DNA of 64,000 nt. Source: Anaeromyxobacteraceae bacterium. Lineage in GTDB: Bacteria > Myxococcota > Myxococcia > Myxococcales > Anaeromyxobacteraceae. The notes below the pieces were generated by a model. That model saw only the letters and a list, made by a program, of their open reading frames with translations. It searched no databases and was not told where the DNA came from. A program made the translations under genes and the position numbers. Shown piece by piece: positions 42,595 through 54,263 of the stretch. The stretch lies in contig DASRRJ010000018.1 in the NCBI GenBank assembly GCA_035656915.1, positions 49,816 to 113,815 of the forward strand, in the 5' to 3' direction. Each line of letters starts with the position of its first letter. The stretch's first letter is position 1.

Positions 42595-43497
42595 ATGAGA
42601 GGGCGTGGCGGGTTCCTGCTGGCGGCGTCGGCGGCGCTGGCGATGGGCTGCGGCCTCATGCCGCCGGAGAAGCCCGGGACGACCCAGCAGTCGACGCCGA
42701 CGCCTCCGCCGGTGCCCGGGCCCACCCAGACGCCGTCGCCCGCTCCGTCCTCGGGGCTGCCGTCCCCGCTGCCCGGCTACCACCTGCTCTGGCACGACGA
42801 GTTCGACGGCGCGGGCCTCGACCCGACGAAGTGGACCGCCTCGACCGGCCCTCGACGCGACGCGACGCTCACCACCGACGCGATCTCGGTCCACGACGGG
42901 CTGCTCACCGTCACCACCTACACCGACGGCGGGAAGCACTACACCGGCTTCCTCACCACCGGCAGCGCCTTCCAGCCGACCTTCGGGTACTTCGAGGCGC
43001 GGATCCGCTTCAACGACGCGCCCGGGGAGTGGTGCGCCTTCTGGCTCCTCTCGCCGACGAACGGGGTCCCGCTCGGAGATCCGGCCACGGCGGGCGCCGA
43101 GGTGGACATCGTCGAGCACCGTGTCACCGACCCGAAGGGCTGGGACGCGCTGCGCGACCTCGTCAAGGAGGAGGTGCACTGGGACGGGTACGGCGCCGAC
43201 CGGAAGGACTCGCCGGAGCACACCGTCCCGCTCGCCGGCGGCGGTCCCGTGCAAGGCGCCTGGCACACCTACTCGGTGCTCTGGACGGACGCGGGCTACT
43301 GGTTCTACGCGGACGGATCGCTGCTCTGGAACTACGACCAGGGGCTCTCGAAGCGGGGCGAGCAGGTGCTGCTCACCTGCGAGGTCGAGGACGGCACCTG
43401 GGCGGGCTACGTCCCGGCCGGCGGCTACGGCTCGCTGGCCAGCAGCGCCACCCACATGGACGTGGACTGGGTGCGGGTCTGGGCGCCGGGGCCGTAG
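42595..43497 (+). CDS. Glycoside hydrolase family 16 lipoprotein (endo-beta-1,3/1,3-1,4-glucanase-like)
   Basis: GGGGAGGGG SD. The signal peptide has a lipobox (LAMGCG) and a Pro/Thr-rich linker. The catalytic GH16 motif EVDIVEH (ExDxxE) and a jelly-roll-type sequence are present. Confidence 0.8.
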   Translation: MRGRGGFLLAASAALAMGCGLMPPEKPGTTQQSTPTPPPVPGPTQTPSPAPSSGLPSPLPGYHLLWHDEFDGAGLDPTKWTASTGPRRDATLTTDAISVHDGLLTVTTYTDGGKHYTGFLTTGSAFQPTFGYFEARIRFNDAPGEWCAFWLLSPTNGVPLGDPATAGAEVDIVEHRVTDPKGWDALRDLVKEEVHWDGYGADRKDSPEHTVPLAGGGPVQGAWHTYSVLWTDAGYWFYADGSLLWNYDQGLSKRGEQVLLTCEVEDGTWAGYVPAGGYGSLASSATHMDVDWVRVWAPGP

Positions 43498-46360
43498 TCC
43501 TCGGAGCCGGCCGCCTACTCCTCCGGCGCGCCAGCGCCGCGGCCGCGAGGAGCCCTGCCAGCGAGAGCGCGTCCCCTCCACCGCTCGAGGCGCAGCCCCC
43601 CCGACCGCCGGCAGCGGCGGAGGCCGGCGTGGGCGATCCTCCAGCCGTCGAGGGCGCGGTGGCCCCCCGGATGACGCCCGAGAGCATGAAGTCGCGCGAC
43701 GAGCTCCCCACGAACACCGGGGTCTCGCACGCCGGCGATGTCCAGGCGTGCGCCGCCGGGTCCCAGCGCTCGAACGCCTCCGGCGCCAGCGCGACGGTCA
43801 CGCGCCGGCTGGCGCCCGGATCGAGCGCCACCTTGGAGAACCCCGCCAGCCGGTGCGGCACCGGGTCGGCCTCCCCGGGGCAGGGTCCCACGTAGACCTG
43901 CGCCACCTCGGCGCCAGCGCGGCCGCCGGTGTTGGCGAGCGTGAACGAGACCTGGGCCGTGCGGCGGCCGGCGGCGTCCACCGTCGCCGGCGCGACCTCG
44001 AGGCCGGAGTAGCCGAAGGTGGTGTAGGAGAGGCCGTAGCCGAAGGGGAAGAGCGGCGCGATCCCCTTCGCGTCGTACCAGCGGTATCCCATGAGCAGCC
44101 CCTCCGACCAGGCGATCACCGGGCCGATCTGGTCCTGGGTGGGCGCGGGCTGCGCGCCGACCGGCGTCTGGTCGAGCGAGCGCGGGAAGGTGAGCGGGAG
44201 CTTGCCCGAGGGGTTCACGTCGCCGAAGAGCACCCGGGCGACGACGTCCCCCTGCCGCTGCCCCGGGTACCAGGCCTGCACCACCGCCGAGACGGCGGGG
44301 AGCCAGGGCATGCTGGTGCCCTGACCGGTGGTGAGCACCACGACCGTGCGCGGGTTGGCCGCCGCCACCGCGGCGATGAGCGCGTCCTGCTCGGACGGGA
44401 GCGAGAGGTCCAGCCGGTCGCGCTCCTCGGTCCCGTAATCCCGCGCGACCACCACCGCCACGTCAGAGGCGGCCGCCAGCGCCACCGCCTCGCGCGTGGT
44501 GGAGAGCACCGTGCCGGCCGGCATCTGCCACCCCAGCTTCAGATCCCCGCCGCGATCGGTCGCCACCCCGATGCTGGGGGCGTCGGCGACGTAGTCCACC
44601 CGAAGGTCGTGCTTCGTGCCGGCGGCGAGCTGCACGGTGGCGGACCTGGAGTCGAGCTCGTGCGAGCCGGAGTGGTCGATGACGAGCGCGCCGTCGAGCC
44701 ACACCCAGCCCTGGCCGCGGTCGGTGAGCGTGAAGGTGTAGGTGCCGGTCGCCGGCGCGGTGAGGGTGCCGTTCCAGCGGGCCGAGATCTTCTGCAGGGC
44801 GAAGCTCTCCGGGAGCTGCGGCTCGGAGGAGGCGTCGACGCTCGGGTAGTCGAAGAAGCCGAGCGAGACCGCCGCCTCGTGGTCCACCCGGATCACCTCC
44901 GCCGGGCCGGCGAAGCTCGGGTTGAGCCAGTACTGCGCCCGCAGGCCGCGGGTCCCGTCGTCGAACCCCTCCGGCGTGAGCACCGAGGAGGGGATGGCCG
45001 GCGGTCCCGGCAGGAGGTGCGCCGGCGAGACCGGGTCGCCACCGGGCGCGAACCTCACGTCCACCCCGGGTCCGGCGCGCTGGCGCAGGCCGTCGAGCGG
45101 AGTCACCGAGGAGGTCGGCTCCACCCGCGCCGCGCCGCCGCCCTGGGCCGCGGCGGTGTCGGCGTCGGCGCCGATGACCGCGATCGAGCGCAGCGCGCCG
45201 GCGGAGAGCGGGAGGAGCCCGTCGCGGTTCTGGAGCAGCACCACCCCCTGCTCGGCGATTTGCTCCGAGCGGTCGGAGTCGTCCGCCTCGGCGAGCGGCC
45301 CCGGTTGCACCGGCTGGTCCATGAGGCCGAGGCGGAACATGGAGCGCAGGATCCGGCGCGCCTTGTCGTCCACCACGTCGCGCGCCACCTCCCCGCGCTG
45401 GACCGCGCCGAGGAGCGAGTGGCCGAAATACTTCTCGAAGGCCAGCTCCTGGTCGAGGCCGGCCGTGGCCGCCAGCACCGTGCCGTGGATCGAGGCCCAG
45501 TCGCTGAGGACGTAGCCCTGGAAGCCCAGCTCGCCCTTGAGGACGTCGGTGAGGAGGTGGCGGTCCTCGCAGGCGAACGCGCCGTTCACGCGGTTGAAGC
45601 CGCACATCACGCTCCCCACCTGGGCGTCGGCGACCGCCGCCTGGTAGGGCCGGAGGTAGAGCTCTCGCAGGGCGCGCTCGTCCAGCTCGGCGTCCACCGT
45701 GAAGCGGTCGGTCTCCTGGCCGTAGGCGACGTAGTGCTTGGCGTCGGCGATCACCGGGTGCTTCTGGATGGCCTGGATGAACGGGGCGGCGAGGCGCGCC
45801 GCCAGGAGCGGGTCCTCGCCGAAGCCCTCGAAGGTGCGGCCGGCGAGCGGGTCGCGCGCGAGGTCCAGGGTGGGCCCGAGCAGCACGTTGTGCCCGGTGA
45901 GGAAGGCCTCGGCACCGAGCACGTCCCCCTGCTCGGAGGCCGCGGTGGGGTCGAAGCTCGCGGCGAGCGCGATGGGCGCGGGGAGCTGGGTGGCCCGACC
46001 GCCGTTCACCCGCTGGTAGGGGATGCGGATGCCCGCCGGGCCGTCGGTCATGGTCAGGGCCGGGATGCCGAGCCGGGCGATGGGGGCGTTGTAGTAGCCG
46101 TAGAGCAGGCAGCGCTCGCCCGTCGCGAGATCGATCTCCTCCTCGAGCGCCATGGCCCCGAGCAGCGCCTCGGCGCGCGCATCCGGCGGCTGGCTGGAGT
46201 CGGTCCAGGGCCGGCTCGCGGGCGGCCCCTGCTCCGAGCCGAGCGTCGGGCCAGGGCAGTACGGCGGTGGCGCGGCGCCGGCGTGGAGCGCGACCGAGGC
46301 GATCACTGCCGCGAGCAGCGCGAGCGCCCCTCGGTCTGCCTGAAACCCGGCGTGGAGCAT
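43373..46360 (-). CDS. Glycoside hydrolase family 3 beta-glucosidase with inserted PA14 domain and MYXO-CTERM-like C-terminal sorting region
   Basis: The ORF was trimmed to Met91 (signal peptide MLHAGFQADRGALALLAAVIASVALHA). The GH3 nucleophile motif GFQGYVLSDWASIHG is present. The PA14 region reads YWLNPSFAGPAEV...TGTYTFTLTDRGQGWVWLDGALVIDHSG. The C-terminal ...GGCASSGGGDALSLAGLLAAAALARRRSRRP resembles MYXO-CTERM. The ORF runs roughly 43 aa beyond it and overlaps the GH16 3' end by 125 nt. Confidence 0.8.
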   Translation of the reverse strand: MLHAGFQADRGALALLAAVIASVALHAGAAPPPYCPGPTLGSEQGPPASRPWTDSSQPPDARAEALLGAMALEEEIDLATGERCLLYGYYNAPIARLGIPALTMTDGPAGIRIPYQRVNGGRATQLPAPIALAASFDPTAASEQGDVLGAEAFLTGHNVLLGPTLDLARDPLAGRTFEGFGEDPLLAARLAAPFIQAIQKHPVIADAKHYVAYGQETDRFTVDAELDERALRELYLRPYQAAVADAQVGSVMCGFNRVNGAFACEDRHLLTDVLKGELGFQGYVLSDWASIHGTVLAATAGLDQELAFEKYFGHSLLGAVQRGEVARDVVDDKARRILRSMFRLGLMDQPVQPGPLAEADDSDRSEQIAEQGVVLLQNRDGLLPLSAGALRSIAVIGADADTAAAQGGGAARVEPTSSVTPLDGLRQRAGPGVDVRFAPGGDPVSPAHLLPGPPAIPSSVLTPEGFDDGTRGLRAQYWLNPSFAGPAEVIRVDHEAAVSLGFFDYPSVDASSEPQLPESFALQKISARWNGTLTAPATGTYTFTLTDRGQGWVWLDGALVIDHSGSHELDSRSATVQLAAGTKHDLRVDYVADAPSIGVATDRGGDLKLGWQMPAGTVLSTTREAVALAAASDVAVVVARDYGTEERDRLDLSLPSEQDALIAAVAAANPRTVVVLTTGQGTSMPWLPAVSAVVQAWYPGQRQGDVVARVLFGDVNPSGKLPLTFPRSLDQTPVGAQPAPTQDQIGPVIAWSEGLLMGYRWYDAKGIAPLFPFGYGLSYTTFGYSGLEVAPATVDAAGRRTAQVSFTLANTGGRAGAEVAQVYVGPCPGEADPVPHRLAGFSKVALDPGASRRVTVALAPEAFERWDPAAHAWTSPACETPVFVGSSSRDFMLSGVIRGATAPSTAGGSPTPASAAAGGRGGCASSGGGDALSLAGLLAAAALARRRSRRPAPRTTAPAPRPAPSPRPCGWRCWPASRSRRPGRSPPRCRPRPRR

Positions 46361-46584
46361 CCGATGGCCGTGCGCCGTGCGGCGACCCCCCTGCGAGCAA
46401 GGGTAGGGCGAGAGGGACGGCAGGCAACGAGCGGGCGGCCGCCGCTCGAGCCCGCGCCCGATGGCCGCGCCGCGACCACGCGCAGGCTCGCGCGCACGAG
46501 AGAGCCCGTCCGGGCGTGGTGCTCGCTCGGCCCGGTGGCTTAAATGGCGGAGATCTTGGAGCGCGGCTGGATCTGGAGGCAAGC

Positions 46585-47604
46585 ATGGCCGACACCATGA
46601 AGGCGTACGAGGTTCCGAAGCCCGGCTCACCCTTCACCCTGGTCGAGCGGCCGGTGCCTCGACCGGCCCCGGCCCAGGTGCGCATCGCCGTCGAGGCCTG
46701 CGGCATCTGCCACTCGGACGCGTACGTGAAGGGTGGGCAGTTCCCCGGGCTGACCCTCCCGCGCGTGCCGGGGCACGAGGTGGTCGGCCGCGTCGACGCG
46801 GTGGGGGACGGCGTGACCACCTGGCGGGTCGGGCAGCGCGTCGGGGTGGGCTGGCACGGCGGCCACTGCTTCGTCTGCGAGGCTTGTCGCGCCGGCGACT
46901 TCATCGAGTGCGCGCGCGGCCTCATCTGCGGCTTCAGCTACGACGGCGGCTACGCCGAGTACCTGATCGCTCCCCAGGAGGCGCTCGCCGCGGTCCCCGA
47001 CGCGCTCGACGCGGTGGCCGCCGCGCCGCTGCTCTGTGCCGGGGTCACCACCTTCAACGCGCTGCGCAACAGCGGCGCGCGCGGCGGCGAGCTGGTGGCG
47101 GTCCAGGGCATCGGAGGGCTCGGGCACCTCGGCATCCAGTACGCCCGCAAGCTCGGCTTCCACACCGTGGCGATCTCGCGCGGCGCCGACAAGCGCGCCC
47201 TGGCCCTCGAGCTCGGCGCGCACGAGTACGTCGACCAGGAGGCCGGCGACGCAGCGGCGGCGCTGCAGAAGCTCGGCGGAGCCCGCGCGATCCTCGCCAC
47301 CGCGCCCAACTCGCAGCTGATGTCGAAGCTGGTGGACGGGCTCGGCCGCAACGGCACGCTGCTCGTTGTGGGGGCGTCGCCGGATCCGATCCAGGTCTCG
47401 CCCTTCCAGCTCATCGGCCCGCGCCGGCGGCTGCAGGGGTGGCCGAGCGGCACGGCCAAGGACTCCGAGGAGGCGCTCGCCTTCAGCGCGCTCAACGGGG
47501 TGGCGTCGCGGAACGAGGTCTTCCCCCTGGAGCGCTGCAACGAGGCCTTCGAGCGGATGACGAGCAACAAGGCGCGCTTCCGGGTGGTGCTGAAGGTGCG
47601 CTGA
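46585..47604 (+). CDS. Zinc-dependent alcohol dehydrogenase (MDR superfamily)
   Basis: GGAGG SD. It has the catalytic Zn (GICHSD...GHE) and structural Zn (C..C..C...C: CFVCEACRAGDFIEC) motifs and a Rossmann GIGGLGH motif. Confidence 0.9.
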   Translation: MADTMKAYEVPKPGSPFTLVERPVPRPAPAQVRIAVEACGICHSDAYVKGGQFPGLTLPRVPGHEVVGRVDAVGDGVTTWRVGQRVGVGWHGGHCFVCEACRAGDFIECARGLICGFSYDGGYAEYLIAPQEALAAVPDALDAVAAAPLLCAGVTTFNALRNSGARGGELVAVQGIGGLGHLGIQYARKLGFHTVAISRGADKRALALELGAHEYVDQEAGDAAAALQKLGGARAILATAPNSQLMSKLVDGLGRNGTLLVVGASPDPIQVSPFQLIGPRRRLQGWPSGTAKDSEEALAFSALNGVASRNEVFPLERCNEAFERMTSNKARFRVVLKVR

Positions 47605-47616
47605 ACGGCGGGTGGC

Positions 47617-47874
47617 TCAGCCGCCGCTCAGCGCCTGCACGAGCTGCACCTCGTCGCCGAAGCGCAGCGGCCGGGAGAGGTCGAAGACCTGCTCGCCGTT
47701 GACGAAGCAGCGGATGTGCGGCCGCAGCCGCTCCTGCTCGTCGATCACGCGGAAGCGGAAGCCGGGGTAATGACGCTCGAGGTCGAGGAACGCCGCGGCC
47801 AGCGTCTCGCCGCGGGCCTCCACCTCCCGCGCCCCGGTGTAGGAGCGCAGCGGGCTCGGGATCAGCACCTTCAT
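47617..47874 (-). CDS. MoaD/ThiS-family ubiquitin-like sulfur-carrier protein (C-terminal GG)
   Basis: 85 aa ending ...LVQALSGG. It has a beta-grasp-like pattern. Its start overlaps the upstream stop as ATGA. Confidence 0.7.
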   Translation of the reverse strand: MKVLIPSPLRSYTGAREVEARGETLAAAFLDLERHYPGFRFRVIDEQERLRPHIRCFVNGEQVFDLSRPLRFGDEVQLVQALSGG

Positions 47875-49082
47875 GCGATACCGTCCAGCTCGGCCGCCTC
47901 CACGGCGTAGATCTCGGGGAGGTGGCGCGCCAGACAGGTCCAGCGCGCGCCCTCGTCGCGGCTCCCCCAGAGCTCTCCGCTCGTCGTCCCGAGGTAGAGG
48001 CCGACCGGGTCGCGCAGATCGCCCGCCATCGCCTGGCGCTTCACCGTCCACCACGCCTGCTCCTGCGGCAGCCCGGCGTCGAGCCGCCGCCAGGTCCTGC
48101 CGCCGTTCCGGGTGACGTAGGCGGCGGCCTTGCCCCCGGGGCTGGTGCGCGGCCAGACGCTGGTGCCGTCCATCGGGAACACCCAGGCGGTGTCGGGATC
48201 GCGCGGGTGGACCACCAGGGGGAAGCCGATGTCGCCGACCCTCTTCGGCAGGCTCCTGCCCACCCGGATCCACTCGCTCGACGGGCGGTCGAGGCGGTAG
48301 GTGCCGCAGTGGTTCTGCTGATAGAGCCGGTCGGGGTTGGCGGGGCAGAGGCGGATGCAGTGCGGGTCGTGGAACGCCGGGTTGGAGACGTCGAACCCCT
48401 CCACCACCTCCAGCCCCGCGAGGAGCGGCGCCCAGGTCTCGCCGCGATCGAGCGACTCGTGCACGCCGCCGCTCGACATGCCGACGTAGAGGTGGGCCGG
48501 GTCGCGCGGGTCGACCAGGATCGAGTGCAGCTTCGGGCCGTCGGGCGTCCCGTCCTGCGGGCCTCCCATCCAGGCCCGGTAGCGGGGGTGGTCGTTCAGC
48601 CCGGAGACCGGCTCCCAGCTGGCGCCGCCGTCGCTCGAGCGGAAGAGCCCGTGCGGCGAGGTGCCGGCGTACCAGACCCGTGGCTCGGTCGCGTGGCCGG
48701 GCGTGAGCCAGAAGGTGTGGTCGACGACGCGGCCCTTCTCGCCCTCAGGCGCCCTGGGGAAGGCGGGAGGCCGCAGGGCCTCCTTCCAGGTCCGCCCGAG
48801 GTCGGTGGAGCGGAAGATCGTGGGGCCGAGGTGCCCGGTCTTCGCCGACGCCAGCAAGGTCCGCCCGTCGCGCGGGTCGAGGACCAGGTGGTTGATGACC
48901 TGGCCCAGGAAGTGGGGCCCGTCGACCTGCCAGCGGCGCCGGGCCGCGTCGCCGCGGTAGACCCAGGCGCCCTTGCGCGTGGCGACGAGCAGGAGCAGAG
49001 GCGGCGTGGGCCGCCGCCGCCTCGAGCGCGGGGGCGTGGCGGGTCGCGGCCTCCGTGCCGTCGTCTTTCGGGTGGTCGCCAT
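47871..49082 (-). CDS. BNR/Asp-box repeat (sialidase-like beta-propeller) protein
   Basis: Five SxDxGxTW BNR repeats are present: STDLGRTW, SDGGASW, SLDRGETW, TRNGGRTW and SRDEGARW. The N-terminus is Arg-rich (possible Tat-like) and the exact start is uncertain. Confidence 0.75.
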   Translation of the reverse strand: MATTRKTTARRPRPATPPRSRRRRPTPPLLLLVATRKGAWVYRGDAARRRWQVDGPHFLGQVINHLVLDPRDGRTLLASAKTGHLGPTIFRSTDLGRTWKEALRPPAFPRAPEGEKGRVVDHTFWLTPGHATEPRVWYAGTSPHGLFRSSDGGASWEPVSGLNDHPRYRAWMGGPQDGTPDGPKLHSILVDPRDPAHLYVGMSSGGVHESLDRGETWAPLLAGLEVVEGFDVSNPAFHDPHCIRLCPANPDRLYQQNHCGTYRLDRPSSEWIRVGRSLPKRVGDIGFPLVVHPRDPDTAWVFPMDGTSVWPRTSPGGKAAAYVTRNGGRTWRRLDAGLPQEQAWWTVKRQAMAGDLRDPVGLYLGTTSGELWGSRDEGARWTCLARHLPEIYAVEAAELDGIA

Positions 49083-49198: not shown

Positions 49199-49858
49199 AT
49201 GCTCCTCGAACACCGGATGCTCCCGCCCCGGACGCCGTCGGACCGGCCGCCGCTGCTGGTGCTCCTGCACGGGATCGGGGCCGACGAGGGCGATCTGCTC
49301 CCGCTGGCGCTGTCGCTCGACCCGCGCTTCCTGGTGATCTCCGCGCGCGCGCCCCACGAGGCCGAGCCGATGGGCTACCGCTGGTACGCCATCGACTGGA
49401 CGGCCACGCCGCCGCGCGGCGATCCAGGCGAGCTCGCCGCCAGCCGCGAGCTCCTGGCCAGGTTCATCGCCGAGGCGCCGGCGGCCTACGGCACCGACCC
49501 GTCCCGCACCTTCCTCCTCGGCTTCAGCCAGGGGGCCATCATGGCGCTGGCGCTGCTCCTCGCCATGCCGGACCTGGTGCGCGGCGTGGTGGCGCACTCC
49601 GGGCGGCTGGCGCGGCTGCCCGGGCCCGACCCCACGCCCGAGGCGCTCTCCGGCGCGGAGGTGCTCCTCCTCCACGGCGCCGAGGACGAGGTGGTCCCCG
49701 CGGCGATGGGGCGCAAGGCGTTCGAGGTGCTGCGGAGCCTCCTCGGCACGCGGGTGGCGTACCGCGAGCTCGAGGGGCTCGCCCACGGGATCTCGGAGGA
49801 GAGCCTCGGCGAGGCGGCGCGCTGGCTCGCTGCCCGGCTCGACGGCGTCGATCGGTGA
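49199..49858 (+). CDS. Alpha/beta hydrolase, phospholipase/carboxylesterase family
   Basis: LVLLHGIGADEGDL, the nucleophile elbow GFSQGA and an AHG catalytic His are present. 219 aa. Confidence 0.8.
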   Translation: MLLEHRMLPPRTPSDRPPLLVLLHGIGADEGDLLPLALSLDPRFLVISARAPHEAEPMGYRWYAIDWTATPPRGDPGELAASRELLARFIAEAPAAYGTDPSRTFLLGFSQGAIMALALLLAMPDLVRGVVAHSGRLARLPGPDPTPEALSGAEVLLLHGAEDEVVPAAMGRKAFEVLRSLLGTRVAYRELEGLAHGISEESLGEAARWLAARLDGVDR

Positions 49859-51966: not shown

Positions 51967-52078
51967 TTCGCTCGCGAAAACGCCGTGATCGACGGTCGTC
52001 GTTCCGTTGGTGGGCGGTTGTCCCACCCCCGGATACAGGGTACAGCGTCACCCACTCCGAACGTGCTACCGCTGTTCG

Positions 52079-52432
52079 ATGCCCCTCAAGATCGCCCTGC
52101 TGATCGCGCTCGCCCTCTCGGCCTGTAACCCCAACAACTGCGATCCGGGCTGCACCGGAAGCAACGGGAGCTGCGAGAGCTGCCCTTCTCCCTACTCCTG
52201 CAACAGCGGCGGGATCTGCAGCAGCGTCGTCAACGGCGTCGCCTGCTGCACCGGAGGCAGCGGCGGCGGCGGTGGTGGTGGCGGCGGGAGCTGCAACGCC
52301 GGGTACTGCGTCTCGAACGGCGCCTGCTGCCCGGCGGGCTCGCCGTACTACTGCCGAGGCTCCTGCTACGTCACGTACAACGACCTGCTCCATGCCGGCT
52401 GCACCACCGCGGTGCAGGGGACCTGTTACTGA
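52079..52432 (+). CDS. Small secreted Cys-rich lipoprotein (22 Cys in 117 aa) with poly-Gly linker
   Basis: The ORF was trimmed to Met25 (MPLKIALLIALALSAC, lipobox LSAC). GC3 is very high. Cys spacing is repeated (C..C...C, CC, C....CC). The central linker is G12S. No SD is obvious. Confidence 0.55.
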   Translation: MPLKIALLIALALSACNPNNCDPGCTGSNGSCESCPSPYSCNSGGICSSVVNGVACCTGGSGGGGGGGGGSCNAGYCVSNGACCPAGSPYYCRGSCYVTYNDLLHAGCTTAVQGTCY

Positions 52433-52553: not shown

Positions 52554-54263
52554 GTGAGCGTGCGCTACCACGCGCTCGCCACGGACTACGACGGCACGCT
52601 GGCGACTGCCGCGCGGGTCGGCGCGGAGACCGTCGCAGCCCTGACCCGGCTGCGCGCCTCCGGTCGCCGCCTCGTGCTCGTGACCGGCCGCATCTTCTCC
52701 GACCTGGCGCAGGTCTTTCCCGAGCACGCGCTGTTCGACGTCGTCGTCGCCGAGAACGGCGGGGTCTCCTGCCGGCCTGGCGCGGCCGAGCGCCTCCTGG
52801 CCGAGGCGCCTTCGCCTGCGCTGGCGAAGGCCCTGCGGGCGCGCGGCGTCCCGTTCGATCAGGGGCGGGTCGTCATCGCCACCCGCGAGCCGCACGACGT
52901 GACGGTGCTGGAGGTCATCCGGGAGCTCGGCCTCGAGCTCGACGTGATCTTCAACAAGGGCGCGGTGATGGTGCTGCCCTCCGGCGTGAACAAGCGCACC
53001 GGGCTCGAGGCCGCCCTGGCGGAGCTTGGGCTCACGGCGCACGAGGTGGTGGCCCTCGGGGACGCCGAGAACGACCACACACTCCTGGCGGGCGCGGAGC
53101 TGGGCGTGGCGGTGGAGAACGCGCTGCCCGCGCTGAAGGAGCGCGCCGACCTGGTCACCCGCGGCGCCAGCGGCGCGGGCGTCGAGGAGGTGATCGCAGG
53201 GTTGTTGGCCGACGACCTCGCCGGCCTGGATCCGCCCCGCCACCGCGTGGCCCTGGGCGAAGGCGCCGCGGGCGCGCTCTCCGTCTCGCCCGCCGGCACG
53301 AGGCTGCTGGTCGCCGGCACCTCCGGCAGCGGCAAGAGCACGTTCGCGAGCGGCGTGCTGGAGAAGCTCGTGGAGAAGGGGTACCAGGTCTGCCTGGTGG
53401 ACCCGGAGGGCGACTTCGAGGGCTTCCAGGGCCTGACGCCGCTCGGCTCCGCGGAGCGGACCCCCTCGGTCGAGGAGGTGGTGGCGCTGCTCGCGGAGCC
53501 GGGCATCAGCCCGGCGGTGAGCCTGCTGGGGCTGCCGCTGCGCGACCGCCCGCGCTTCCTGACCGAGCTCTGGCCCAAGCTGCAGCAGCTCCGCGCCAGG
53601 TCCGGGCGCCCGCACTGGCTGGTGGTGGACGAGGCGCACCACATGTTCCCGCGCGCGTTCGACTCGAGCGCCGCGCTGCCCCGCGACCCGGGCGGCCTGC
53701 TGCTCGTCACAGTCCACCCCGACCGGCTCGAGCCCGAGGTGCTGCGGACGGTGAACGCCGCGGTGGCGGTGGGGGAGGGCGCGGCGGCGACGCTCTCCGC
53801 CTTCTTTCGCTCTGCCGGGCTGCCCGGAGGCGGCCCCGCGGAGACGCAAGCGCCCGAGCAGGCGCTCCTGTGGACCGCCCGTTCCGGCGAGACCGTCGCC
53901 TTCCGCCCTGCCCAGCCTCGCGCGGCGCACCAGCGCCACCGGCGGAAGTACGCCTCCGGCGACGTGCACGAGAAGGCGTTCCGGTTCCGGGGGCCAGACG
54001 GCCGCCTCGACCTGCGGGCGCAGAACCTCGAGCTCTTTCTCCAGCTCGCAGACGGGGTGGACGACGAGACCTGGCGCTTCCACCTCGAGAACGGGGACTA
54101 CTCGCGCTGGTTCCGTGAGGCCATCAAGGACGAGGAGCTGGCGCGCGACGCCGCGGAGGTGGAGCGCTCGGCCGGCGGCGACCCACGGGACACCCGCAAG
54201 CGCCTGCGCGAGGCGGTGGAGCGGCGCTACGTCGTGGAGGACGCGGGGGCGGTCGCGCGCTGA
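52554..54263 (+). CDS. Fusion protein: HAD-IIB (Cof/SPP-like) phosphatase domain + HerA/DUF87-like P-loop ATPase domain
   Basis: The GTG start has GGAGAAGGTGAG upstream. The HAD motifs are I LATDYDGTLA, II LVLVTGR and IV GDAENDHTLL. After about 270 aa come Walker A (VAGTSGSGKST), a VDPEGDFEGF box and Walker B (HWLVVDEAHHMF), reminiscent of HerA/FtsK/DUF87 ATPases. Confidence 0.7.
   Translation: MSVRYHALATDYDGTLATAARVGAETVAALTRLRASGRRLVLVTGRIFSDLAQVFPEHALFDVVVAENGGVSCRPGAAERLLAEAPSPALAKALRARGVPFDQGRVVIATREPHDVTVLEVIRELGLELDVIFNKGAVMVLPSGVNKRTGLEAALAELGLTAHEVVALGDAENDHTLLAGAELGVAVENALPALKERADLVTRGASGAGVEEVIAGLLADDLAGLDPPRHRVALGEGAAGALSVSPAGTRLLVAGTSGSGKSTFASGVLEKLVEKGYQVCLVDPEGDFEGFQGLTPLGSAERTPSVEEVVALLAEPGISPAVSLLGLPLRDRPRFLTELWPKLQQLRARSGRPHWLVVDEAHHMFPRAFDSSAALPRDPGGLLLVTVHPDRLEPEVLRTVNAAVAVGEGAAATLSAFFRSAGLPGGGPAETQAPEQALLWTARSGETVAFRPAQPRAAHQRHRRKYASGDVHEKAFRFRGPDGRLDLRAQNLELFLQLADGVDDETWRFHLENGDYSRWFREAIKDEELARDAAEVERSAGGDPRDTRKRLREAVERRYVVEDAGAVAR

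Follow-up and report, generated by a model that had tools for sequence, protein, structure and literature searches.

What does a small protein of the sulfur-carrier class, ending in Gly-Gly, do beside a beta-propeller? This question is raised by two genes that follow each other in tandem on the minus strand of a 64,000-nucleotide stretch of DNA from an Anaeromyxobacteraceae bacterium (contig DASRRJ010000018.1; hereafter the window). The first encodes a 403-amino-acid Asp-box (BNR) beta-propeller protein (47871..49082, (-)) and the second an 85-amino-acid beta-grasp protein of the ThiS/MoaD family with a Gly-Gly end (47617..47874, (-)), both as given by their open reading frames (ORFs) and translations. 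They share an ATGA (47871..47874, (-)), read directly in the sequence, in which the stop codon of the propeller gene overlaps the start codon of the ThiS-like gene, and are therefore translationally coupled, as the initial annotation of this locus had pointed out. ThiS/MoaD carriers are the prokaryotic roots of ubiquitin, and every known carrier has opened up a chemistry of its own, namely that of thiamin, molybdopterin, cysteine, thio-sugars or tRNA thiolation. The carrier in the window is paired with a fold never linked to thiocarboxylate chemistry, which points to an undescribed partnership for the ThiS/MoaD class. Judged by their sequences, the two genes are a very widespread, ancient and co-evolving two-gene module present in hundreds of bacteria and archaea. 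As the best explanation we propose, tentatively, that the small protein is a dedicated sulfur carrier that is thiocarboxylated by an unlinked E1 and serves the propeller as its cognate acceptor enzyme.

The initial annotation had described the smaller product as a ThiS/MoaD-type beta-grasp protein with a Gly-Gly end, and this description holds. The protein reads MKVLIPSPLRSYTG...VQLVQALSGG, with a stop codon immediately after its C-terminal QALSGG (Gly-Gly codons at 47620..47625, (-)), and it matches the Pfam model ThiS (PF02597) over its full length (residues 3-85) with 35.4 bits against a cutoff of 22.5. A sequence search of the PDB returned CysO 3DWG_C at 1.7e-8 and 4N6E_B at 5.7e-8, and sequence identity to CysO carriers is 34-36%. 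Structure prediction also gave the proposed fold: the protein was modelled as a beta-grasp with a predicted local distance difference test score (pLDDT) of 91.9 (AlphaFold2, 50-sequence alignment), and Foldseek aligned this model with a template modelling (TM) score of 0.90 to CysO 3DWG_C and 0.91 to CysO bound to BexX, followed by SAMP1, MoaD and Urm1, a ranking that agrees with the sequence search. The protein stays below the NCBIfam cutoffs of SAMP1 (NF041918; 45.4 versus 60 bits) and moaD_arch (TIGR01687; 36.8 versus 49.5 bits). On sequence and model together, the small protein is best placed as a member of the ThiS/MoaD family, closest to the CysO-type carriers. An identical copy is recorded from an Anaeromyxobacteraceae metagenome-assembled genome (MAG).

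To follow the pair beyond the window, we took the relatives of the propeller, which include more than 8000 close ones at 70-87% identity and span 569 clusters (50% identity) at E <=1e-30. One genome per species left 589 propeller loci, of which the 80 best belong to Myxococcota, Alpha-, Beta- and Gammaproteobacteria, Nitrospirota, Nitrospinota, Gemmatimonadota and Binatia. We found that pairing is obligatory among the close relatives, with the ThiS-like gene directly downstream and on the same strand in 81 out of 81 related loci. The two genes overlap by 4 nucleotides in 22 out of 84 related loci and are separated by at most 30 nucleotides in 66 out of 84, with a median of 11 nucleotides. The same arrangement is seen in a bacterial clade at ~40% identity, in which the ThiS-like gene immediately follows the propeller gene in 64 of 80 metagenomic loci (64 of the 72 with room for it), so that the adjacency is conserved well above chance, a point on which the initial annotation had let its reading depend. 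The order of the genes is reversed in Thermoplasmatota, where in the four loci examined the ThiS-like gene ends 1-11 nucleotides before the propeller start, and also in Ralstonia solanacearum, Cupriavidus metallidurans CH34, a Burkholderia and P. aeruginosa (4 loci). The P. aeruginosa pair is probably PA1355 and PA1356, a numbering obtained by counting back from pmpM (PA1361).

Both proteins also occur joined in a single chain, as ThiS-Gly-Gly-linker (10-15 amino acids)-propeller fusions in five protein clusters (P0295, P0391-P0393 and P0384). Moreover, the two proteins diverge in step: their pairwise distances over 139 loci are correlated with r = 0.95, versus a permutation maximum of 0.08. 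The conserved adjacency, the fusions and the co-divergence together indicate that both genes were inherited and diverged together since before the clades split.

The Gly-Gly end of the carrier is near-invariant throughout. In the window clade, 80 out of 83 complete orthologous small ORFs end in LSGG followed by the stop codon, and 77 are exactly 85 amino acids long; the three exceptions are two evident frameshifts and one mis-placed start. The corresponding end is (T/P)A(I/V/M)SGG-stop in the ~40%-identity clade, VAGG-stop or TAGG-stop in archaea, and QALSGG in the P. aeruginosa, Ralstonia, Cupriavidus and Burkholderia loci. One carrier (locus L090, 7669-7989) carries a 16-amino-acid extension past the Gly-Gly.

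The larger protein is an ortholog of PDB entry 3B7F (E 2.4e-169 over residues 13-397, phmmer versus PDB), a structural-genomics deposit from Ralstonia eutropha JMP134 (YP_299179.1) that is titled 'glycosyl hydrolase, BNR repeat' and whose crystal structure has been public since about 2008. Quistgaard and Thirup (2009) tabulated 3B7F as a single 7-bladed propeller with 5 Asp-boxes and the function 'Not known' (PMC2716378). Because its ortholog is 7-bladed, the window propeller has seven blades, and the term 'five-bladed' in the initial annotation is to be corrected, since five is the number of Asp-boxes. These were located by regular expression on the translation as STDLGRTW (residues 92-99; 48786..48809, (-)), SSDGGASW (149-156; 48615..48638, (-)), SLDRGETW (210-217; 48432..48455, (-)), TRNGGRTW (324-331; 48090..48113, (-)) and SRDEGARW (374-381; 47940..47963, (-)), and a degenerate Asp-box lies at residues 264-271 besides these five clear ones.

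Of the earlier label 'BNR/sialidase-like', then, the Asp-box repeats stand and the sialidase does not. The Pfam matches of the propeller (BNR with 39.5 bits, otherwise only Sortilin-Vps10 and BNR_6) are all of the Asp-box repeat type, and we found neither a RIP/FRIP motif ([FYW]R[IVL]P) nor a match to the Pfam sialidase domain model BNR_2. Similarity to the GH74 xyloglucanase 2CN3 (E 2e-6) is confined to Asp-box segments, and the protein falls below the NCBIfam cutoffs of PRK13684 (Ycf48/HCF136; 12.2 versus 326 bits) and NF045728 (F510_1955 glycosylhydrolase; 63.6 versus 175 bits). It has no hydrophobic segment (maximum KD19 0.76), and no signal peptide or membrane segment was found in it. Because the hydrophobic segment and the RIP/FRIP motif are both absent, the propeller is predicted to be cytoplasmic and is not a credible sialidase. 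Full-length orthology, together with the presence of GT+KG, H186, H241, QNH and H292, places it in an uncharacterized, 3B7F-type family of cytoplasmic Asp-box propellers.

In a conservation table of 83 diverse family members (33-80% identity), we observed that a set of polar residues is kept across clades at 33-40% identity: T35, K37, W171, H186, H241, Q256, N257, H258, H292, R312, R349 and D355. T35 and G38 belong to a motif that reads VATRKG in the window (48969..48986, (-)) and has the family-wide form GT+KG; both are conserved in at least 95% of the members and K37 in at least 80%. Most of the others (W171, H186, H241, Q256-N257-H258 and H292) lie outside the Asp-boxes in one stretch of the gene (48207..48572, (-)), with R312, R349 and D355 downstream of it. 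By canonical blade topology, most of the conserved polar residues would lie at the starts of innermost strands or in B-C or D-A loops, and therefore on the face and along the axis used by propeller enzymes for binding substrates or metals. We infer from this that the stretch at 48207..48572 is a candidate for the active or ligand site and would lie near the axis on the top face. Some twelve polar residues kept at this level of divergence seem to be more than a pure scaffold would need.

The propeller also starts with an Arg-rich tail, noticed in the initial annotation and borne out here: residues 1-28 (48999..49082, (-)) hold 10 Arg/Lys and no Asp/Glu. This tail precedes the first conserved strand, LLLLVATRKGAW, and has a similar composition in most window-clade orthologs (consensus MAR(T/S)xKK...RR before VLVATRKGAW), and it is absent from the divergent bacterial clade and from archaea. 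Tat or Sec export through the Arg-rich N-terminus was considered and rejected, as there is no hydrophobic region and relatives without the tail also conserve LLLLVATRKGAW, which forms the first strand of the propeller. As a guess, the tail might bind a polyanion. Elsewhere in the family, one 704-amino-acid protein (P0298, for which we have no locus) is a Ser/Thr protein kinase domain fused to a family propeller with no membrane segment between them, which suggests a possible role of the propeller in sensing or interaction within the cytoplasm.

How might the two proteins work together? In the ThiS/MoaD pattern, an E1 adenylates the Gly-Gly end, a persulfide that is often carried on a rhodanese gives the thiocarboxylate, and the tail is finally inserted into the active site of the cognate enzyme, the gene for which usually lies next door (MoaE, ThiG or CysM). 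Every part of this pattern that can be seen in sequence is present in the propeller/ThiS-like pair, and both of the nearest solved relatives of the small protein in sequence and fold, CysO of M. tuberculosis and the BexX-associated CysO, donate sulfide, which supports the carrier reading. We therefore envisage the following steps. Carrier and partner enzyme would be produced at about the same level from a single transcript with coupled translation. The 85-amino-acid protein would be adenylated at its Gly-Gly and converted to the thiocarboxylate by a MoeB/MoeZ-type E1 that has a rhodanese domain and is encoded elsewhere in the genome. Its flexible ...QALSGG-COSH tail may then dock in a propeller pocket lined by H186, H241, Q256-N257-H258, H292, R312 and R349, where the sulfur would be handed over to a substrate or a metal site. 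The fusions have a counterpart in MoaX, a MoaD-MoaE fusion that needs cleavage at Gly-Gly for activity (PMC4326299).

In agreement with the initial annotation, no E1 or JAMM gene is adjacent to the pair, and we found no E1, rhodanese, JAMM motif or second ThiS-like gene in the whole 64-kb window. The missing E1 is less puzzling than that annotation had implied. MoeZR serves both MoaD and CysO, so that an unlinked E1 is no obstacle (PMC3227635). In addition, two relatives do carry an E1 within the operon: in two gammaproteobacterial MAGs (L043, 4842-5975; L069, 7383-8531), a rhodanese-ThiF gene starts at most 10 nucleotides past the ThiS-like stop codon. Its product has an N-terminal rhodanese with an intact CxxGxR loop fused to ThiF, as confirmed with Pfam. 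A rhodanese-ThiF architecture is typical of thiocarboxylate-forming E1s, and the rhodanese of MoeZ, MOCS3 and Uba4 sits at the C-terminus, unlike this N-terminal one. An archaeal contig seen in two samples (L088/L089) also has ThiF and ThiI-domain genes within 3 kb, on the opposite strand.

Several observations weigh against this explanation, and we consider them together. These loci (L043, L069 and L088/L089) make up only 4 out of ~170 with an adjacent E1, and no biosynthetic genes that would name a substrate recur around the pair in the ~170 related loci. Streptomyces and Rhodobacter have propeller homologs with no adjacent ThiS-like gene, few as these are. The propeller itself has no conserved Cys among the 83 diverse members, which makes a persulfide relay on it unlikely, and no cofactor-binding signature was found in it. 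A kinase fusion such as P0298 is seen more with sensor or interaction domains than with enzymes. Finally, we know of no propeller-fold enzyme that uses a protein thiocarboxylate.

The genes that travel with the pair offer a clue to its physiology. No third gene is universal, as all-against-all clustering of 81 + 80 loci gave no flanking-ORF cluster in more than ~20% of loci. The genes most often found near the pair encode a YciI (DGPF) protein, a VOC protein of the PhnB type and a sigma factor that carries a long extension at its C-terminus, and all three are related to P. aeruginosa genes beside the pair. Among these P. aeruginosa genes, PA1351 is an ECF sigma factor in the PAO1 annotation. 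At least one of YciI, VOC and sigma lies within ~6 kb of the pair in 29 loci, and at least one is present in 17 of the 52 loci of the window clade for which 10 kb or more of sequence is available; these genes are often on the same strand as the pair and within 400 nucleotides of it. Such ECF42-type neighbours are found beside the pair in L172 (P. aeruginosa NZ_CP133752.1), L058, L066, L073, L077, L035 and L106. The set is as described for ECF42, and in S. meliloti RpoE10 drives SRPBCC-like and glyoxalase-like genes from TGTCGG-N17-CGTC promoters (PMC6180224). PA1353 is a VOC protein (PMC3175449).

Consistent with this context, some of these loci have TGTCGA-N16-17-TCGTC upstream of the pair. 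The motif TGTCGR-N14-19-CGTC occurs upstream of the pair in 5 out of 86 and 5 out of 80 loci (~6%), versus 0.4-0.8 in shuffles and 1 on the opposite strand, and in its TGTCGR-N16-17-CGTC form it resembles promoters that depend on RpoE10; the loci with this context or motif are phylogenetically related, and the counts overstate their independence. The association nevertheless recurs in three clades with different gene orders. The window locus has none of the ECF42/YciI/VOC genes and no TGTCGR-type motif. Since the pair stands in ECF42/YciI/VOC clusters in many relatives, it probably functions in the response to stress or in detoxification, not in core cofactor synthesis. To our knowledge, the signal that induces ECF42 is not known, and the function of the pair could in turn illuminate these widespread clusters. 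Going further, we speculate, with considerable doubt, that the propeller is the first propeller-fold enzyme to take sulfur from a protein thiocarboxylate, and that the pair forms a new carrier pathway in soil bacteria, P. aeruginosa and Thermoplasmatota, often switched by ECF42, which makes or repairs a sulfur metabolite or a metal-sulfide site during the stress response.

Other neighbours gave no consistent theme. A divergent MarR regulator lies upstream of the pair in 13 loci of the ~40%-identity clade. A neighbour cluster that looked like CysA (sulfate ABC) was rejected, as re-testing left only generic ABC ATPase similarity. Thiol-flavoured neighbours (CysRS-like, YbaK/EbsC and egtB-egtD; L086, 9197-10420; L176, 2752-4146; L172, 6146-6622; L175, 2565-4746) were likewise rejected as a pattern, as each occurs in at most three loci. 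An anti-phage defence role or phage origin of the pair was also rejected: neither protein had a PADLOC match (E up to 0.01), and no relative was found on viral contigs.

Other explanations have to be weighed against a dedicated sulfur carrier. The strongest of them, which we regard as unlikely, is that the small protein is a ubiquitin-like modifier of the SAMP, TtuB or Urm1 type, activated by an E1 and attached to lysines, with the propeller as its main target (for example at the GT+KG lysine) or as a platform that recruits substrates. SAMP1 is indeed the best NCBIfam model for the small protein, at a score that is under the 60-bit cutoff, and SAMP1 and Urm1 are among its structural neighbours. 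K37, the lysine in question, is widely conserved in the propellers, protein-protein contacts are common for this fold and the kinase-propeller fusion exists. The stress-cluster context recalls the reported oxidative-stress conjugation of Urm1 (PMC9574740). However, neither the window nor the related loci have an E2, an E3 or a JAMM-type deconjugating enzyme linked to the pair, and the in-operon E1 bears a rhodanese, which is a sulfur-transfer domain. Moreover, 1:1 coupled synthesis with a single partner suits a stoichiometric complex better than it does a signalling modifier.

Slightly less probable again is a non-covalent subunit, in which the beta-grasp protein would be structural, chaperone-like or regulatory, as TmoB is in toluene monooxygenase, with a tail kept for binding and no C-terminal chemistry. 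Pairing, coupling and co-divergence need only a complex and no chemistry, and an E1 is rarely linked; the in-operon rhodanese-E1 of two loci would, however, be left without a role. ThiS/MoaD relatives that act as structural subunits alone have, as generally reported, lost the Gly-Gly end, whereas here Gly-Gly is invariant and terminal in more than 95% of genes across clades at 30-40% identity. In the fusions and in L090, with its 16-amino-acid extension, no free Gly-Gly end is encoded, but the fusions retain the Gly-Gly.

These same fused (P0295, P0384) and extended (L090) carriers would fit a third alternative, which we consider improbable: a metal- or His-dependent propeller hydrolase that cleaves carrier extensions, fusions or adducts as a stand-in for the JAMM proteases (Mec+, QbsD, DRJAMM). 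We found no JAMM gene in the three archaeal contexts examined, including L090, and the fused forms lie on contigs too short for this to be judged. Most Asp-box propellers are hydrolases (PMC2716378), and a His cluster is conserved in this one. Yet by far most carriers are encoded with Gly-Gly as their very end and do not require trimming, a processing enzyme need not be made 1:1 with its substrate, and the final sulfur acceptor would be left unnamed.

Lastly, a secreted or periplasmic glycoside hydrolase (sialidase or xyloglucanase-like) with an accidental ThiS-like neighbour is very improbable: source annotations ('exo-alpha-sialidase', 'glycosyl hydrolase, BNR repeat'), weak GH74 xyloglucanase matches through the Asp-boxes and a GH3 gene 1.3 kb away in the window speak for it, but it is contradicted on every tested point, by the lack of a signal peptide, membrane segment or RIP/FRIP motif, by seven blades versus six in sialidases, by all curated family cutoffs being missed, by the few acidic residues conserved outside the Asp-boxes, and by a ThiS adjacency that is conserved in bacteria and archaea, with co-divergence and fusions, while the GH3 gene does not recur beside the pair.

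In the window, the pair is flanked by a convergent Zn-alcohol dehydrogenase (46582-47604) and a divergent carboxylesterase (49199-49858) as immediate neighbours, with a thioesterase, an SPFH protein, a histidine phosphatase and the GH3 enzyme beyond them. The last is a large glycosidase (43373-46267, (-)) with a PA14 insert and an Fn3-like domain. No riboswitch, promoter or terminator was found near the pair in the window. Two further genes of the window are of note in their own right: a 141-amino-acid Cys-/Gly-rich ORF with a lipoprotein-like N-terminus (..LIALALSACNPNNC..) and no Pfam match (52007-52432, (+)), and a gene that joins a HAD-type phosphatase domain to a HerA/DUF87-like P-loop NTPase domain, an unusual combination (52554-54263, (+)).

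A propeller or BNR partner is not mentioned in the text of comparative surveys of prokaryotic ubiquitin-like proteins (PMC1779556, PMC1949818, PMC2948915). We found no functional study of the pair, of 3B7F or of PA1355/PA1356 in a literature search whose coverage of subscription journals was limited, so that a description elsewhere is possible. The ECF42 target lists in the literature consulted do not include the pair, and the mentions of 3B7F that we found do not note a ThiS-like pairing. Apparent homologs are present in the tractable P. aeruginosa, Ralstonia solanacearum and Cupriavidus metallidurans, and the function is therefore directly testable.

Among characterized systems, the pair most recalls CysO-CysM of M. 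tuberculosis (3DWG) and CysO-BexX of Amycolatopsis orientalis (4N6E). The sequence, fold and Gly-Gly end of the small protein are alike, and in CysO systems, too, the carrier is encoded beside, or forms a 1:1 complex with, a single acceptor enzyme, and the E1 may be unlinked and shared. The partner differs: here it is a seven-bladed Asp-box propeller and not a PLP-dependent (pyridoxal phosphate-dependent) sulfhydrylase or ThiG-like enzyme, and there is no JAMM (Mec+) gene. We accordingly rejected the identification of the small protein as CysO itself, its neighbours being the propeller, the Zn-alcohol dehydrogenase and the carboxylesterase, with no CysM or JAMM. With MoaD-MoaE the pair shares a beta-grasp Gly-Gly carrier and adjacent, often overlapping genes, and with MoaX a natural fusion in which the carrier is N-terminal and the Gly-Gly is retained at the junction. 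Unlike MoaD, the small protein is below the TIGR01687 cutoff, its partner has an unrelated fold, and neither a MoaE-like protein nor molybdenum cofactor genes lie nearby. More broadly, MoaE-like, CysM and Mec+ genes are neither neighbours of the pair in the window nor recurrent among the ~170 related loci. The pair stands outside the textbook Moa/Thi/Cys operons, as had been claimed from the outset. SAMP1/UbaA of Haloferax and Urm1/Uba4 are similar in fold, Gly-Gly end, archaeal members and a possible stress link; the score below the SAMP1 cutoff sets the small protein apart from them, and a dedicated propeller partner is not their feature. By defining contexts or curated cutoffs, the small protein is not CysO, MoaD or SAMP1.

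On the side of the propeller, the closest known protein is 3B7F, likewise a single seven-bladed propeller with five Asp-boxes, the N-terminus of which is not basic, unlike that of the window protein. GH33 sialidases are six-bladed, and the window propeller differs from them in its seven blades, without RIP/FRIP or a BNR_2 match. From GH74 xyloglucanases, which consist of two tandem seven-bladed propellers (~740 amino acids) with a cleft and are usually secreted, it differs as a single 403-amino-acid propeller without a signal peptide. In its genomic setting, the pair resembles the ECF42/YciI/VOC clusters of S. meliloti (RpoE10) and, probably, of P. aeruginosa (PA1351-PA1354), with which it stands within a few kb in the 17 window-clade loci named above as well as in P. 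aeruginosa. Together, these comparisons describe a sulfur-carrier or ubiquitin-like system with an unprecedented partner fold.

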